From assembly GCA_003170085.1 (NCBI GenBank), contig PMZT01000065.1, forward strand, positions 3,272 to 26,470: a DNA stretch of 23,199 nt, in the 5' to 3' direction. The notes under the pieces are model-generated. The model made no database searches. It worked only from the letters and a program-made list of their open reading frames with translations, and was not told the DNA's origin. Positions 4,956-20,978 of this stretch are shown here, one piece after another. Source of the DNA: Planctomycetia bacterium. GTDB lineage: Bacteria > Planctomycetota > Phycisphaerae > FEN-1346. Within the stretch, counting starts at the first letter, position 1. Every line of letters begins with the position of its first letter. The translations under genes and the position numbers were made by a program.

Positions 4956-5303
4956 GATTTCACCGCGAACGCAAAGAAAAACGGCAACGGATTCACCGCA
5001 GAGATGCAGAGAACGCAGAGAAAAACAGAAACGGCCTACGGATTGAGTTAAAAACAGAAAAAAGGATTTCACCGCGGAGAACGCAAAGAAAAACGGCAAC
5101 AGATTCACCGCAGAGGCCGCTGAGAACGCAGAGAAAAACAGAAACGGCCTACGGATTGAGTTAAGAACAAAAGAGGCAAACGGCAGGCGAATAACGGCGG
5201 CACCTGCTCGCCTGTTCAATCTGTTCAGTCCTTTTTTCTGTTTTTCCCCAGCCTGTAAGTCGTTGCCGTTTTTCTCTGCGTTCTCCGCGTCTCTGCGGTG
5301 AAT
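4956..5303. repeat. Composite repeat element, copy B. Two tandem ~110-bp direct units (4956-5055 and 5066-5170: gatttcaccgcgRAacgcaaagaaaaacggcaacRgATTCACCGCAGAG..GAGAACGCAGAGAAaaacagaaacggcctacggattgagttaa). Then a small hairpin, the cctgttcaatctgttc core, and an inverted partial unit (5258-5303).
   Basis: Read directly. The units are about 90% identical to each other and to the arms of copy A (3185-3413). Orientation and order of the sub-modules match copy A. Copies A and B bracket the GH29 gene. Confidence 0.75.
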
Positions 5304-6830: not shown

Positions 6831-7916
6831 CTACCCTTTGACCGGCCTTCGCCGAAACAGGCTCAGCAGGATCAGCACGACCGTGGGGACGACAAGCCAC
6901 CAGTACGCGATCGTGGGGGGCGCGGCGGCGGCCGCTGCCGTGGGCGGCGCCGTCAGGCCGGCGGGCTTCCCGGCGCGAACCCACGCGGTATAGAAAAGCT
7001 GGGCCACGTGGTCGGCGGCATCGCGCAGGGCCGCCGCCTCGGGCTGGCCGCGCGACTCCAGTTCGCTCTTGAAGGCCGCGTAGTACGGCTTGGCCCGCGC
7101 CGAGTTAACGTCGTCGAGTTCCTTATCGGCCTCCTCCACCTTCTCGGGCGGCGTGTAGCCGGTCTTCAGGCGGGCGGCCGTGTCGGCCTCAAGGATGGGG
7201 GCCGCGCGGCTGTTGGCCACGATGAGCCAGTCGAAGAGCCGCCCCTCCGCGTCCTCCACATACGGCACGGGCGCGCGGCCCTTGCGGATCTCGGCGGCGT
7301 AGAAATCCTTGTGGCGGACGAGGAGGCCGATCTCGAGCATCTTGTGGATGCCCGTGTTGCCCGTGAGCTTGCCATTGTAGTTCTTCGTGCAGTGGAACGG
7401 CATGTGCAGGTCGGCGCCGAAGTGCGAGACCTCGCCGGCCCACTTGAAGATCTCCTCGGTGGCGCCGCGGCGCAGGGCATCGACGAGCGCTGCCTCGGCG
7501 TCCTCGATCACCCAGGGCGCGGTCCCGTGCTCCTCGAACGGCTTCTTGCCGAACTCCTTCTCGGCGGCCCTGCGGTCGCGCGGGAAGTGCGCGAACGGGA
7601 ACGGCTCGGAGGTAATGCCATCAATATCAAAATAATGTTTGACGCGTTCCCTGGCGAGCTCGGGCGACTTGGCCTTCCTGAGTTCCTCCACCCGCCGGTC
7701 GGGCTCGAGCGACGCGGCCTTCAGCCGCCTGAGAGCCCCCTCATCGGCCAGCAGGCCGTGCAGCGGCTCGGGCAGGCGCTGGACGGCCTCGTCGGCGACC
7801 TCGAGGTGGCCCCAGTCGCCCCACGCCAGGGCCGGACGGTCGGAAACCGCGGCGAGAAGCAGCAGCACGGGCAGCACGAGCGCGGCGGCGCGAATGAACT
7901 TGAGTCCAAGGTCCAA
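6831..7916 (-). CDS. S1/P1-nuclease-like zinc-dependent hydrolase (phospholipase C / P1 nuclease superfamily), secreted, with a C-terminal hydrophobic anchor; start codon uncertain
   Basis: ORF 6831..8222(-). Mature N-terminus ALA|WGDWGHLEVADEAV matches the Trp1/His6 zinc-ligand start of P1 nuclease. HYFDID and SHFGADLHMPFH match the P1 H-x-x-G-D-x-H-Q-P-x-H zinc motif. The C-terminus is PPTIAYWWLVVPTVVLILLSLFRRRPVKG (TM helix plus basic tail). There is no ATG before the signal-peptide-like KFIRAAALVLPVLLLLAAVS. Candidate starts are TTG at 7916 or ATG at 7994, and both lie inside the heptamer-repeat palindrome. Confidence 0.5.
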   Translation of the reverse strand: MDLGLKFIRAAALVLPVLLLLAAVSDRPALAWGDWGHLEVADEAVQRLPEPLHGLLADEGALRRLKAASLEPDRRVEELRKAKSPELARERVKHYFDIDGITSEPFPFAHFPRDRRAAEKEFGKKPFEEHGTAPWVIEDAEAALVDALRRGATEEIFKWAGEVSHFGADLHMPFHCTKNYNGKLTGNTGIHKMLEIGLLVRHKDFYAAEIRKGRAPVPYVEDAEGRLFDWLIVANSRAAPILEADTAARLKTGYTPPEKVEEADKELDDVNSARAKPYYAAFKSELESRGQPEAAALRDAADHVAQLFYTAWVRAGKPAGLTAPPTAAAAAAPPTIAYWWLVVPTVVLILLSLFRRRPVKG

Positions 7917-8009
7917 AGTCCAAGGTCCAAAGTCAGCGGACCAAGGACCGCGGTGAAGGTCTTTAACGATCTGTCGACTTTGGACTTTGGACATTGGACC
8001 TTGGACTAT
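7903..8009. repeat. Large palindrome built from 7-bp repeats. Forward GTCCAAG/GTCCAAA x4 (7903-7930) then GTCAGCG GACCAAG GACCGCG, a ~25-bp spacer, then inverted TTTGGAC TTTGGAC ATTGGAC CTTGGAC (7978-8006).
   Basis: Read directly: ttgaGTCCAAGGTCCAAAGTCCAAGGTCCAAAGTCagcggaccaaggaccgcggtgaaggtctttaacgatctgtcGACTTTGGACTTTGGACATTGGACCTTGGACtatttcg. The stop codon (TAG, complement of cta at 8006-8008) of the TPR gene lies inside the right arm. Confidence 0.85.
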
Positions 8010-8888: not shown

Positions 8889-9689
8889 GTGCTGGCAAAG
8901 CGTGTCATTCCGTGCCTCGACGTCGAAGGCGGCCGCGTGGTCAAGGGGACGAAGTTCCTTGACCTCAGGGACGCCGGCGACCCTGTCGAGGTGGCGGCGC
9001 GGTACGACGCCGAGGGCGCCGACGAGCTGGTGTTCCTTGACATCACGGCCAGCCACGAGGCCCGCGACATCCTCCTCGACATCGTCCGCCACACGGCCGA
9101 GCAGATCTTCATGCCGCTGACGGTGGGCGGGGGCATCCGCACGATCGAGGACATCCGCCGGCTCCTCCAGGCCGGCTGCGACAAGGTCTCGATCAACTCG
9201 GCGGCGGTGCGCGACCCCGATTTCGTCCGCCGCGCGTCCGACCGTTTCGGCAGCCAGTGCATCGTTGTGGCGATCGACCCCAAGCGGGTCATCGAGAACG
9301 GCCGCGAGGTGTGGCGCGTCCACATCAACGGCGGCCGCGTGCCGACCGACAAGGAGGCCGTGTCGTGGGCCCGGCAGGTCGAGGCCCTCGGGGCCGGCGA
9401 ACTCCTCCTGACGAGCATGGATGCCGACGGCACGCAGGACGGCTATGACATCCCGATGACCCGGGCCGTGGCCGAGACGGTCACGATCCCCGTCATCGCC
9501 AGCGGCGGGTGCGGGTCGCCCGAGCACATGGTCCGCGTGCTGACCGAGGGCAAGGCCGACGCGGCCCTGGCGGCCAGCATCTTCCATTATCGCAAGTTCT
9601 CGGTGGCCGAGGCGAAAGAGGTCATGGCGCGGGCGGGGGTGCCGGTGAGGATGAGTCCAAAGTCTGAAGTCCAAGGTCCAAAGTCATGA
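8889..9689 (+). CDS. hisF: Imidazole glycerol phosphate synthase, cyclase subunit HisF
   Basis: GTG start giving (M)[22 protein letters not shown]..; canonical HisF (beta/alpha)8 motifs ([26 protein letters not shown]). The ORF track extends upstream to 8580 with no support. The last ~12 codons ([12 protein letters not shown]) are encoded by the heptamer-repeat tract. The stop TGA at 9687-9689 overlaps the next gene's ATG (ATGA). Confidence 0.9.
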
Positions 9690-17216: not shown

Positions 17217-17263
17217 GGCGATTCGGACGCGGGTGAAGACTCGCCGTGCGATGCAAACCGTTC

Positions 17264-17872
17264 TTAGACGGTATTCGCGTACTCTTCACTTTCGAACAGG
17301 CTGGCATGCTCGCCCACACCCACCTCCTTGTCATGCAGGTGTCGAACATCGACAACCGCCCCGAAGCGTATGAATGTCTTCTCGAAGCGTTCGTAGTCCG
17401 CACCCCAGTAGATCATGGCGCATGACATTGGCGCCCCCTTGCCGCCATCCTTGCCATCCACAAGAAAACGAAGGCGTGTATCATATAGAAATGCTACGGC
17501 CGTGGCAGCACCAAACACGAATTGCTTCCAGTGTCGCGTGTTCGTCGCGACAGGGACGAGAGCAAGAACCTCGGCGCCATGCTTGGCGTGCGCCTCGGCA
17601 CACCTTCGCAGCCAGTCGCGAATCGTGGTGCCCCGTTCTCGATCGCTGCCGTAAGGCGGATTCACGTAGATTGTCGCGTAGTTCCATGATGCAGCCAAGC
17701 CGTCGGTTTCGGGAAGGCGATACTCGACTTCCGCCTTCACGATCGAATGGCGGTTGGAACAGGGATCGAGTGCGATTGATCCCGAGAAACACCTTCGAAC
17801 CGCATGCACATACTTTGGCGGGGTGCACCAGTTCTGACTCAGCGATTCCGCGTTGCTGCGCCCTGCTGTCAT
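17264..17872 (-). CDS. Phage-type DNA N6-adenine methyltransferase (Dam_N6_MT family, PF05869-like)
   Basis: Family hallmark WCTPPKYVHAVRRCF..ALDPCSN.., then the catalytic IYVNPPYG (NPPY). Start ATG at 17872 has a perfect TAGGAGGT Shine-Dalgarno 9 nt upstream. The in-frame upstream extension to 17971 lacks it. Local GC is about 53-55%, against about 68% for the window. Confidence 0.8.
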   Translation of the reverse strand: MTAGRSNAESLSQNWCTPPKYVHAVRRCFSGSIALDPCSNRHSIVKAEVEYRLPETDGLAASWNYATIYVNPPYGSDRERGTTIRDWLRRCAEAHAKHGAEVLALVPVATNTRHWKQFVFGAATAVAFLYDTRLRFLVDGKDGGKGAPMSCAMIYWGADYERFEKTFIRFGAVVDVRHLHDKEVGVGEHASLFESEEYANTV

Positions 17873-17886
17873 GAGTTCCGTACCTC

Positions 17887-19008
17887 CTACCAGTCCTTTG
17901 CGGCGAGCTTGCGCAAATCTGCTTGTAGATTCGTGAGGTTGCCCTGGCGAGGGGAGATCACGTTGAACCACGTCTCGACCTCGGCTTCATGGGTGCTGAA
18001 GTAGCTCCGAAGGGCCTCGTCGGCGTCGACGCTGACGCGCACCTTGGTAAACCTATTGGCGCCAGAAGTACCGGAGTAGCTCGCCAAGAACGCCTCCCGG
18101 GCGGGCGCCAACTCTGGTGAAGGGTTCAGCAACAATTTGTCAATGAATTGAGACAGTCCTGCATCCGTCAGGAAGAGGAGCCAGTCGTATGACTGAGCGA
18201 GCACGCGCATTTCCTTGTTTTGGTTCCCAGATGTGAACCAGTTGCCGTGGTTGCTGACCACGCCCACTGTGAGAATGAAGCCGCGCAGATCGGCGACCGG
18301 CGAGCAATCGATTACCTCTCGCAGCAGGTCTCCGTAAGAGCCCGTACGAAACGTGCCGTCGCGCCTTTCCATGACGCCTTGAAACTCCCCATTGCGCAAC
18401 CGAACCTTCTGGAGAGAAGAGACCGATCGCGCCACATAGGCTCCCTGCTTTGCCTTCTCAATTGTCTGTGGCCCCTTTCGCATACCTTCTTCAATACCCA
18501 CTCGCTTGCACTCGAATATGGCGAACGGATCTGTCAAGAGCTCGCATACGGCTAGCCGGCAACGAGAGTTGTCGAGTGCGTCAACGTTGGCCACCACCAG
18601 ACGATCCGCACTCTCGGCAATCACGCACGCATTACGCTTAACGCCGTGCTTGCTCAAAACCTGTGTTGACTTTACCGCCGCTTCGCGTAAGAAAGGCAAG
18701 TTTCGCTTGAGCTTCGCCACTGTGAGCGGGAGTGACAACGGGGCAATGTCAACCACATGCCGGGCGCGGATCGGGTGAAGCGAAAACTCAACGTTGTGAG
18801 CAATCGCACTGTTGGCGAACTCGGGAACTGATCGCTCGATCACGATGTGATCCCGCAGATCCCAGGCTCGCAGCGTATAAAAAGTGATGATCTCGACGAG
18901 CGTACCCAGAGCTCGGCCAGCAGCCTTCTTGCGATCTGCGGCATACTGGAAGACGGTGTCGGCCAGCGTCTTCTGGAGTGCGTCAACGGATTCAAAGGTC
19001 AATTGCAT
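17887..19008 (-). CDS. Uncharacterised 373-aa protein translationally coupled to the Dam-type methyltransferase; putative type II restriction endonuclease (possible PD-(D/E)xK: ..VANVD..x22..FECK)
   Basis: Its TAG stop lies inside the methyltransferase Shine-Dalgarno (..gacTGGTAGGAGGTacggaactcATG). Same strand and same low-GC island. A D...ExK candidate sits at VANVD / FECKRVG. No other recognisable motif. The nuclease assignment is inference. Confidence 0.4.
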   Translation of the reverse strand: MQLTFESVDALQKTLADTVFQYAADRKKAAGRALGTLVEIITFYTLRAWDLRDHIVIERSVPEFANSAIAHNVEFSLHPIRARHVVDIAPLSLPLTVAKLKRNLPFLREAAVKSTQVLSKHGVKRNACVIAESADRLVVANVDALDNSRCRLAVCELLTDPFAIFECKRVGIEEGMRKGPQTIEKAKQGAYVARSVSSLQKVRLRNGEFQGVMERRDGTFRTGSYGDLLREVIDCSPVADLRGFILTVGVVSNHGNWFTSGNQNKEMRVLAQSYDWLLFLTDAGLSQFIDKLLLNPSPELAPAREAFLASYSGTSGANRFTKVRVSVDADEALRSYFSTHEAEVETWFNVISPRQGNLTNLQADLRKLAAKDW

Positions 19009-19229
19009 GCTCCTGCGTTGTGCCGTTCATGCCGTCCAACAATGATTAGAAGAACCCGCATAAGATGCGAAACCTTTGTTTCCTGCCCGAAAAGCTCGCC
19101 GTTGATCCATCCGCCAAGGCTGCGATAACCCCTTAGCCTCATTACCCACAGTCTACGTTATGTTTATCATGGCGTCTTGCGCGAGTCAACATAGAAACCT
19201 CTGGCCGCCGACAACCGCCCGACAAACGC

Positions 19230-19257
19230 TTGACAGGGCCGCTTCACGGCTTAAGAT
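19230..19257 (+). promoter_or_regulatory. Candidate sigma70-like promoter (TTGACA, 16-nt spacer, TAAGAT) upstream of the secreted hypothetical gene
   Basis: cTTGACAgggccgcttcacggctTAAGATatc. Consensus -35. About 140 nt upstream of the ATG at 19396. Confidence 0.4.
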
Positions 19258-20279: not shown

Positions 20280-20978
20280 ATGAAGAAGGACATTCACCCG
20301 AAATACGTTGAGTGCAAGGTCACGTGCGGCTGCGGCAACACGTTTTCGACCCGGTGCACGGTGCCGACGCTGGCGGTCGAGGTCTGCTCGAACTGCCACC
20401 CGTTCTTCACGGGCACGCAGAAGTTCATCGACACGGCCGGCCGCGTCGAGCGCTTCCAGAAGAAGTACGGCTGGGACGCCAAGCAGGTCGTCACCCTCGC
20501 CGATGCCGCGGAGAAGGAAGCCGCCGCGAAGCCCAAGCGCAAGGTGGCCTCTCTCAAGAAGATCGAGTTCCTGAAGCCCAAGGTCGCTCAGGTGATGACG
20601 CCCGAGGCGGCGGGCGCCGAAGCAGGCGGTCGCGGCGCAGGCGGTCCCGGCGGCGCGGGCGGTGCGGGTGGTGGCGGTGGTCGGCCCGGCGGCGCGGGTG
20701 GTGGCGGCGGACGGCCCGGCGGCGCGGGCGGTGGCGGCGGGCGGCCCGGCGGCGGACGTGGCGGCCGCGGCAAGCGCGCAGCCCCGGTTTCGACCGAACG
20801 CCTCCGTACGCCCAAGCCCAAGGCCGAAGAGCCCGCCGCGGATGCAGCCAAGGCGGAAGAGCCCAAAGCCGAGGCCCCCAAGGCCGCTGAGCCGCAGGCC
20901 GAGGCCCCCAAGGCCGAGGCTCCCAAGGCCGAGGCTCCCAAGGCCGAAGCCCCCAAGGCCGAGGAAAAGAAGAGCTAG
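20280..20978 (+). CDS. rpmE: Ribosomal protein L31 (zinc-ribbon type) with a ~160-aa low-complexity C-terminal extension
   Basis: The first ~70 aa, [22 protein letters not shown]...[29 protein letters not shown], are canonical L31 with a CxxC..CxxC zinc ribbon. Three tandem 33-nt units then encode [11 protein letters not shown]. Then come KAE-rich and AEAPK x5 (15-nt) repeats, ending EEKKS. Confidence 0.85.

Follow-up and report, generated by a model that had tools for sequence, protein, structure and literature searches.

A horizontally acquired gene pair in a planctomycete-like genome probably encodes a type II restriction–modification system with a previously unannotated nuclease family

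The window, i.e., the whole analysed stretch of 23,199 nucleotides from contig PMZT01000065.1 of a Planctomycetia bacterium, carries a low-GC block between pmbA and a host gene for a 249-aa protein. The block contains two genes (Table 1). The first encodes a 373-aa protein, a putative restriction endonuclease; gene callers start this ORF at an alternative TTG two codons in, yielding a 371-aa product (P0001). The second encodes a 202-aa N6-adenine DNA methyltransferase. Both genes lie on the minus strand, which the first-pass annotation of this DNA, made from the sequence alone, had left unstated.

That annotation had described a nuclease-then-methylase order, in which the TAG stop of the 373-aa ORF falls within the Shine–Dalgarno sequence of the methyltransferase gene, and both points are borne out. 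The junction reads GACTGG-TAG-GAGGT-ACGGAACTC-ATG, where TAG forms the first three bases of TAGGAGGT, and the gap between stop and ATG is 14 nt. The ribosome-binding site of the methylase overlaps the nuclease stop, so translation of both genes is likely linked. In other genomes, the gap is 14 nt in 11 cases and 3–13 nt in 10, and the genes overlap by 4 nt in 8. A search for a conserved operator ahead of the nuclease gene found none: the similarity shared by carriers is confined to approximately 50 nt preceding the start codon. The island contains no small controller-protein ORF.

Table 1. Features of the low-GC island (positions in the window).
Feature	Position	Strand	Comment
Low-GC inserted island	17217..19229		Between pmbA stop and promoter-like site of the next host gene
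N6-adenine DNA methyltransferase, 202 aa (stop included)	17264..17872	-	ATG 17872, stop 17266–17264; Pfam Dam PF05869
Catalytic motif IV of the methyltransferase, codons N71-P72-P73-Y74	17651..17662	-	
Restriction–modification junction	17873..17889	-	Nuclease TAG inside ribosome-binding site TAGGAGGT, 9 nt before methylase ATG; read from sequence
Putative type II restriction endonuclease, 373 aa (stop included)	17887..19008	-	ATG 19008, TAG stop 17889–17887
(D/E)xK half of the predicted nuclease motif, codons E166-C167-K168	18505..18513	-	Strand 163–169 of the model
Nuclease-gene leader and presumed promoter region	19009..19229	-	Part of the low-GC block; hairpin 19071–19055 from terminator scan

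The GC dip noted earlier is real, although the estimate of 53–55% was slightly low: positions 17217–19230 have 56.8% GC versus 67.1% in the remainder of the window, where other 2014-nt segments average 67.0% (sd 2.0, minimum 62.4%). Third-codon-position GC is 0.68 and 0.64 in the two island genes versus 0.91 and 0.94 in the flanking pmbA and 249-aa gene. The island is bordered by pmbA on one side and, on the other, by the 249-aa host gene with its own promoter-like site (19230–19257); the neighbouring genes in the window are housekeeping genes. Neither direct or inverted repeats at the island ends nor an integrase were found, and an Rfam scan of the window returned no RNA family.

The first-pass annotation had proposed comparing syntenic loci from pmbA to the downstream gene, and this comparison revealed the insert to be absent from three relatives with conserved synteny, whose PmbA proteins are 80–82% identical. 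There, just 150–260 nt lie between pmbA and the gene homologous to the 249-aa one, searches for both island genes gave no match to either, and the 2-kb GC dip is missing together with the genes. These empty sites were located via PmbA homologues; searching JGI metagenomes with the 249-aa neighbour led to short contigs only. Because the GC content of the module is below that of its flanks in nearly all carrier hosts, and because of the three empty sites, the island is a foreign, horizontally acquired insert in a planctomycete-like genome.

The 202-aa protein scores 52 bits against the Pfam family PF05869 (Dam; gathering score 28.1) over residues 11–161, which confirms the earlier assignment to Dam-family N6-adenine methyltransferases based on the motifs WCTPP (residues 15–19), DPC (36–38) and NPPY (71–74). 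The label "phage-type" given there stands at the Pfam level. It does not extend further: the protein reaches only 29.1 bits against TIGR01712 (phage N-6-adenine methyltransferase equivalog), below the NCBIfam cut-off of 97.05, and the accompanying nuclease family is nearly absent from phages. PHROG 111 "DNA methyltransferase" is matched at 2.6e-26, and the best PADLOC label is oMTase (orphan methyltransferase, 4.6e-11). Methylase orthologues show no variation (20 of 20 and 33 of 33) in NPPYG, W15, T17, P18 and L35-D36-P37-C38; by these residues, the enzyme keeps its catalytic and cofactor-binding motifs intact. Nothing found in the analysis implies GATC specificity. A literature text search on PF05869 returned no characterised restriction–modification pair. 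The non-specific adenine methylases Hia5, Hin1523 and Nma1821 were considered as PF05869 kin; they possess a DPPY motif at approximately residue 194 and an N-terminal FxGxG, i.e., a different architecture (PMC3299994), and the lead was therefore dropped.

The 373-aa partner matches no Pfam or NCBIfam family at E-values up to 1, and the same scans of six distant members of its family gave nothing. Sequence and profile searches of the PDB with the window protein and two family alignments were equally empty, as was a Foldseek search against the PDB. The first-pass remark that the partner is unlike the MboI, DpnII and Sau3AI nucleases agrees with the absence of any Pfam, NCBIfam or PADLOC match to those families. 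The structure search suggested there was based on two independent AlphaFold models, of the window protein (pLDDT 85.7) and of a 30%-identical relative, P0191 (pLDDT 86.7), both with pTM 0.89. The best structural matches for both models are restriction enzymes; with P0191, this applies to each of the top 14. The protein is thus predicted to adopt a restriction-enzyme fold of the PD-(D/E)xK superfamily, and no evidence pointed to a structural or regulatory protein. Beyond the catalytic core, the model contains an inserted subdomain (approximately residues 89–136) and a C-terminal helical domain (approximately 282–373).

A possible active site VANVD...FECK had been noted previously (residues 139–143 and 165–168), and its second half is supported by the family alignment. 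Of 32 diverse members (27–100% identity), 31 retain both E166 and K168, and C167 and R169 are invariant; in the model, ExK lies on the third core strand (163–169), followed by a helix (181–196) with conserved E184, K185, K187 and Q188. The first half did not hold up: D143 and residues 146–150 vary across the 32 members, and D143 is therefore unlikely to be the catalytic residue. Where the strand preceding ExK begins, the position of the canonical "PD" aspartate, the family shows no conserved aspartate; the conserved E39, E58, E63, H71 and E74 could be candidate substitutes for it.

The nuclease family is large: clustering at 50% identity yields 328 clusters from more than 3,500 sequences. Its hosts belong to Planctomycetota, Latescibacterota, Dehalococcoidia, Bacteroidota, Firmicutes and proteobacteria, and it also occurs on apparently archaeal contigs. 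Every source labels the family "hypothetical", there is no Pfam or NCBIfam model, and the source names of ten cluster representatives hold nothing informative. Searches of 50,697 phage and 72,556 plasmid records gave no member, and just 4 of 2.9 million IMG/VR contigs carry one. A methylase gene lies directly downstream of the nuclease gene in 32 of 32 GTDB genomes from more than 10 phyla, in all four viral contigs and in other metagenome loci, and a nuclease without a methylase was not found at any locus. Clustering of neighbours at the 32 loci revealed no third gene common to all. The sequence identities of the two proteins co-vary (r = 0.94), and both genes are under purifying selection, with a median dN/dS of 0.14 (nuclease) and 0.078 (methylase).

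In a nuclease clade with approximately 30% identity to the window protein, all five members adjoin proteins of 725–920 aa of the N6_Mtase/Eco57I type. The fullest match to the type IIG profile PDLC03630, by the neighbour at locus L041, begins at position 168 of 1100, and none of the clade neighbours has an alignment that covers the initial ~167 positions; these neighbours therefore appear to be devoid of the N-terminal nuclease region. The nuclease family is paired with two unrelated adenine methylase types, i.e., it swaps partners. The PADLOC type II restriction endonuclease profile PDLC03437, whose 381 positions resemble the 371–384 aa of the nuclease family, recognizes the distant family members P0191 (E = 7.5e-9), P0284 (3.5e-9) and P0178 (2.7e-6). 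The window protein matches it weakly (E = 0.0011, 16 bits), and it gives no match to the main-clade proteins P0122, P0290 and P0297; the clade of the window protein therefore lies outside what this profile recognizes.

Because the predicted fold, the 32/32 adjacency, the partner swapping and the three empty sites all support it, we consider it probable that the island is a two-gene type II restriction–modification system that reached its place between pmbA and the adjacent host gene by horizontal transfer, as the first-pass annotation had supposed. The conserved ExK, the PDLC03437 matches of the distant members, the co-variation of the two proteins, the purifying selection and the one-sided decay in genome L021, where the nuclease gene is truncated beside an intact methylase, speak for it as well. 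Against it stand the variable "PD" aspartate, the weak PDLC03437 match of the window protein and the PADLOC orphan label of the methylase. Most likely it is an ordinary restriction–modification system, whose cutting enzyme comes from a widespread family lacking a name in standard databases. We propose that the two genes form a single transcription unit with the nuclease first. The Dam-family enzyme would transfer a methyl group from S-adenosylmethionine to the N6 of adenine within a short target sequence of the host's DNA, and the 373-aa protein would act as a Mg2+-dependent PD-(D/E)xK endonuclease cutting the same sequence when unmethylated, for example in incoming phage DNA. We infer that the nuclease is active, sequence-specific on its own and blocked by methylation, and by analogy with its closest structural neighbours it may leave 5′ overhangs.

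Given its pairing with adenine methylases, the nuclease would have to recognize a site that includes an A. Palindrome avoidance was analysed in 343 kb of flanking DNA from carriers, with no non-carrier control: many 6-mers are depleted, with GTCGAC showing the lowest observed/expected ratio (0.35), and CTAG and GATC are mildly depleted. This depletion is generic and yields no unique recognition-site candidate.

A different division of labour, in which the 373-aa protein serves as a cleaving subunit, itself barely or not at all sequence-specific, and works only in complex with the methylase that recognizes the target, seems unlikely to us. Such an arrangement would resemble a split type IIG or a type III Res–Mod enzyme rather than a classical type II pair of independent enzymes. 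It would account for one nuclease family occurring beside two unrelated adenine methylase types, and for a distant-clade partner that looks like a type IIG enzyme minus its N-terminal nuclease region. It would also suit the conservation of the nuclease family, which is unusually high for a restriction enzyme and counts against two independent enzymes: long motifs remain invariant down to 27% identity, more than expected with diverging DNA-recognition surfaces. In Haloferax volcanii, HVO_A0006 and HVO_A0237 have been suggested, though not demonstrated, to form a split type IIG enzyme (PMC4389544). HVO_A0006 itself, part of a type IIG N-terminus and carrying PD-x14-EAK, was rejected as a member of the family described here (PMC4389544). 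On the other hand, the 202-aa methylase is a very small protein without a separate domain for recognition that could direct a partner. The 373-aa protein, with its modelled inserted subdomain and C-terminal helical domain, would be large enough for DNA recognition of its own, and the structures nearest to it belong to type IIP, IIE and IIF enzymes, which are self-sufficient. The family-wide version of the idea is in our view similarly doubtful: the nuclease would be a portable cleavage module deriving its specificity from the paired adenine methylase, either Dam-family or nuclease-less type IIG-like with a recognition domain. If true, it would make the window pair a two-subunit complex and a natural split, re-targetable restriction enzyme.

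Still less probable is that the methylase is a functional orphan with an epigenetic or anti-restriction role, and the partner a NucC-like abortive-infection effector or a repair or methyl-directed nuclease. PF05869 methylases are common as solitary phage genes, with which the PHROG 111 match is consistent, and the best PADLOC label points the same way. However, the sole invariant neighbour of the nuclease is a DNA adenine methylase of either of the two types, and the nuclease family is near-absent from phages. A cutter of methylated DNA would need a target different from that of the active methylase next to it for the two to coexist. The cA3-activated NucC of CBASS and type III CRISPR systems is a protein of approximately 240 aa encoded beside a cyclic-oligonucleotide synthase, whereas a synthase gene occurs in none of the 32 loci, which share no other signalling gene either; the conserved neighbour is a DNA methylase.

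That the window nuclease gene is an inactive relic beside a functional methylase is least credible of all: restriction genes do often decay while methylases persist, and in genome L021 the 5′ 144 codons of the nuclease gene are lost with the methylase intact, but the frameshifts seen in L024 and L030, each a single event in a long-read assembly, may be errors of sequencing, the window ORF is of full length and lacks none of the residues invariant in the family, an identical protein is found on at least eight contigs, and the nuclease dN/dS is low family-wide.

The probable type II system has consequences for annotation. In the window's clade, PADLOC gives the nuclease just 16 bits and labels the methylase an orphan; genome surveys based on such profiles would therefore miss the restriction gene and probably count the methylases as orphans. 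One characterised member would provide an annotation for thousands of genes and might prove to be a restriction enzyme that recognizes a new site containing adenine.

Among the closest known systems are the PD-(D/E)xK enzymes (alpha class) of the Cfr10I/NgoMIV/Bse634I/AgeI/SgrAI/BsaWI and EcoRII/PspGI/PfoI/Ecl18kI groups, to which the window nuclease shows 6–15% sequence identity and no match detectable by sequence or profile searches. Enzymes of these groups, which have cytosine methylases as partners, recognize CCGG-type or CC(N/W)GG sites, whereas the window nuclease is paired with an adenine methylase. It is also 80–100 residues longer and possesses a canonical E-x-K, in place of the S/T-x-K of the Cfr10I group. 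The MboI, DpnII and Sau3AI systems are two-gene type II systems like the window pair, and MboI and DpnII use adenine methylation. With phage Dam proteins of the TIGR01712/T1 kind, the window methylase shares the PF05869 match and the WxTP, DPC and NPPY motifs; unlike theirs, its gene type is chromosomal and always follows a nuclease gene, and the pair is essentially absent from phage collections.

The low-GC block between pmbA and the gene of a 249-aa host protein is a foreign insert with two genes, encoding a putative nuclease of 373 aa and a methylase of 202 aa; both lie on the minus strand, which the first-pass annotation did not mention. GC content is 56.8%, against 67.1% in the remainder of the window, so the drop reported there is confirmed, while its estimate was slightly low. 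Other windows of 2014 nt average 67.0% (sd 2.0, minimum 62.4%). Third-codon-position GC reaches 0.68 and 0.64 in the island genes versus 0.91 in pmbA and 0.94 in the 249-aa gene, and in almost every other host, too, the pair has a lower GC content than the flanking sequence.

By its PmbA homologues, the host belongs among Planctomycetota and Phycisphaerae-like bacteria. Three relatives with PmbA 80–82% identical to that of the window all have the upstream genes in the same order (two T2SSE genes, cvpA, tldD, pmbA); in these, only 150–260 nt separate pmbA from the homologue of the 249-aa gene, and neither island gene has a match. Their intergenic spacer contains a promoter-like block, to which the TTGACA-16-TAAGAT site in the window appears to correspond, placing the right-hand boundary of the island at about 19229. 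Repeats and a recombinase were sought at the island ends, and neither was found.

Coordinates of the island, of its relatives in other genomes and of further repeats
Feature	Sequence	Position	Strand	Remark
Low-GC island	window	17217-19230		
373-aa ORF (nuclease)	window	ATG 19008 to TAG stop 17889-17887	minus	
202-aa ORF (methylase)	window	ATG 17872 to stop 17266-17264	minus	
TTGACA-16-TAAGAT promoter-like site	window	19230-19257		apparent counterpart of the relatives' spacer block
Leader hairpin	window	19055-19071	minus	47-63 nt 5' of nuclease start codon
Intergenic tandem repeat	window	4956-5169		113-nt unit, 1.9 copies, 91% match
Inverted partial copy of 113-nt repeat	window	about 5255-5300		
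Heptamer arrays	window	7903-8007		
Single heptamer arm	window	9654-9685		just 5' of ATG 9686
Ribosomal protein L31 gene	window	20280-20978		232 aa
Tandem repeats encoding L31 tail	window	20625-20771, 20817-20965		
Truncated nuclease gene	L021	6001-7295		first 144 codons lost
Frameshifted nuclease gene	L024	6001-7114		single frameshift
Frameshifted nuclease gene	L030	6001-7112		single frameshift
Distant-clade nuclease beside type IIG-like adenine methylase	L041	4001-7949		
Same arrangement	L043	222-3757		
Same arrangement	L045	497-4046		
Same arrangement	L052	1368-5131		
Same arrangement	L057	710-4161		

The two genes are separated by 14 nt (TGG-TAG-GAGGT-ACGGAACTC-ATG), a junction in which the nuclease stop codon belongs to the methylase ribosome-binding site, as the first-pass annotation had read it; the protein motifs it quoted are likewise all present in the two ORFs. 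The nuclease gene is preceded by a small leader hairpin (TTCGCAT-CTT-ATGCGGG, then a T-rich run), which is not conserved in other carriers.

The methylase matches the Dam family (Pfam PF05869, 52 bits; gathering score 28.1), PHROG 111 and the PADLOC 'orphan methyltransferase' profile. Its earlier description as phage-type names its family and is no evidence for an origin in phages; the score against the phage equivalog TIGR01712 (29 bits) lies below the cut-off of 97. The motifs NPPYG, LDPC and WxTP do not vary among 33 orthologues, and with a median dN/dS of 0.078 the protein is thus a functional-looking N6-adenine methylase. Hia5/Hin1523 was checked as a lead for this protein and rejected.

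The 373-aa protein received no assignment from Pfam, NCBIfam or PHROG and no match in a PDB sequence search; PADLOC returned a single weak match, covering residues 138–197, to PDLC03437, a profile of type II restriction enzymes (E = 0.0011). Across 32 family members (27–100% identity), E166 and K168 of the FECK motif are kept in 31, while C167 and R169 are invariant. This motif occupies a strand (163–169), and the helix after it carries the conserved residues E184, K185, K187 and Q188. The FECK half of the proposed catalytic arrangement VANVD...FECK thus stands; D143 of VANVD varies freely across the family and is therefore not catalytic. Conserved candidates for completing the metal site are E39, E58, E63, H71 and E74. 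Median dN/dS of the nuclease is 0.14.

In fold and predicted action, the modelled protein resembles alpha-class type II restriction enzymes, the closest structures being the Cfr10I/NgoMIV/AgeI and EcoRII/PspGI groups, with which it shares only 6–15% sequence identity. The adenine-methylase partner implies a target of a different kind from theirs. By Pfam, NCBIfam and PADLOC matches, the protein is unrelated to GATC nucleases, and a NucC-type effector was rejected because the island pair lacks its defining genomic context.

The nuclease family has over 3,500 matches in a set of 5.8 billion proteins, all annotated as 'hypothetical' and grouping into 328 clusters at 50% identity. Scanning a single genome from each species yielded 32 loci, in Latescibacterota, Dehalococcoidia, Anaerolineae, Pirellulales, Gemmatimonadetes, Binatia, Entotheonella, Spirochaetia, Chlorobiota, alpha- and deltaproteobacteria, Prevotella and other Bacteroidales, and Oscillospiraceae. 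A Dam-family methylase lies directly 3' of the nuclease gene in all 32, the genes overlapping by 4 nt at one extreme (8 loci) and standing 14 nt apart at the other (11 loci); no locus had a nuclease without an adjoining methylase. These two genes are the only ones common to all loci, and their identities to the window pair co-vary (r = 0.94). The pair is absent from phage and plasmid collections, and among 2.9 million IMG/VR contigs only 4 carry it.

Further shared neighbours are limited to Latescibacterota, where the pair occupies one conserved chromosomal site with common flanking genes (L001–L006, L009–L011, L016, L019, L021); this suggests long vertical retention there, as opposed to patchy spread elsewhere. 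L021 has lost the start of its nuclease gene and keeps an intact methylase, the sequence 5' of the break being unrelated to that of its relatives. The frameshifts in L024 and L030 may represent real decay or long-read errors.

The most distant nuclease clade (P0178, P0191, P0204, P0284 and P0289; about 30% identical) lacks the Dam-family neighbour in all five members. Each instead adjoins, convergently or co-directionally, a 725–920-aa protein with N6_Mtase and Eco57I domains. The fullest match among these neighbours, at L041, begins at position 168 of 1100 in the PADLOC type IIG profile PDLC03630, and none aligns to its first ~167 positions, presumably the nuclease domain region, as in type IIG enzymes. 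Three clade members match PDLC03437 (E = 3.5e-9 to 2.7e-6). This arrangement may represent a naturally split type IIG-style system. Some of these contigs are archaeal-looking; L043 carries TBP and TrmB genes.

A nuclease-fold family constant in having an adenine methylase neighbour and varying in the type of methylase shows the pattern expected of a restriction enzyme. Invariant linkage, fold and partner swap support the type II reading of the first-pass annotation, and we consider a classical type II restriction-modification pair probable. The methylase would mark an adenine within a short target sequence, and the nuclease would cut the same target when unmarked; judging from the junction, the genes would be co-transcribed, nuclease first, with linked translation. 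Statistics on palindrome avoidance in the carrier flanks gave no information on the target. A nuclease relying on the methylase for target recognition, like a split type IIG enzyme, is unlikely: the partner swap and the unusually strong conservation of the nuclease family speak for it, but the nuclease has extra domains and its Dam-family partner is tiny, which speaks against it. Still less probable is an orphan methylase beside a nuclease-fold protein with some other role, since the linkage is invariant and the loci lack a signalling gene. That the window's nuclease gene is an inactive relic is very improbable in view of its intact invariant residues and purifying selection.

The island is most likely an ordinary restriction-modification system, its nuclease belonging to a family unrecognised by current protein-family and defence-system libraries; the genes of the pair may already be listed as putative in REBASE. 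The finding is useful for annotating a large unnamed family and may provide a new enzyme specificity, but no new principle is involved.

Elsewhere in the window, an (A/G)GTCCAA heptamer array of about 4.6 copies and an inverted counterpart 40 nt away together form a long imperfect hairpin of 7-nt units, and a third, single arm lies farther along. The inverted partial copy of the 113-nt repeat lies slightly downstream of it. The L31 protein has a normal domain and, after it, a low-complexity tail of roughly 150 residues built of repeated motifs, the first present three times.
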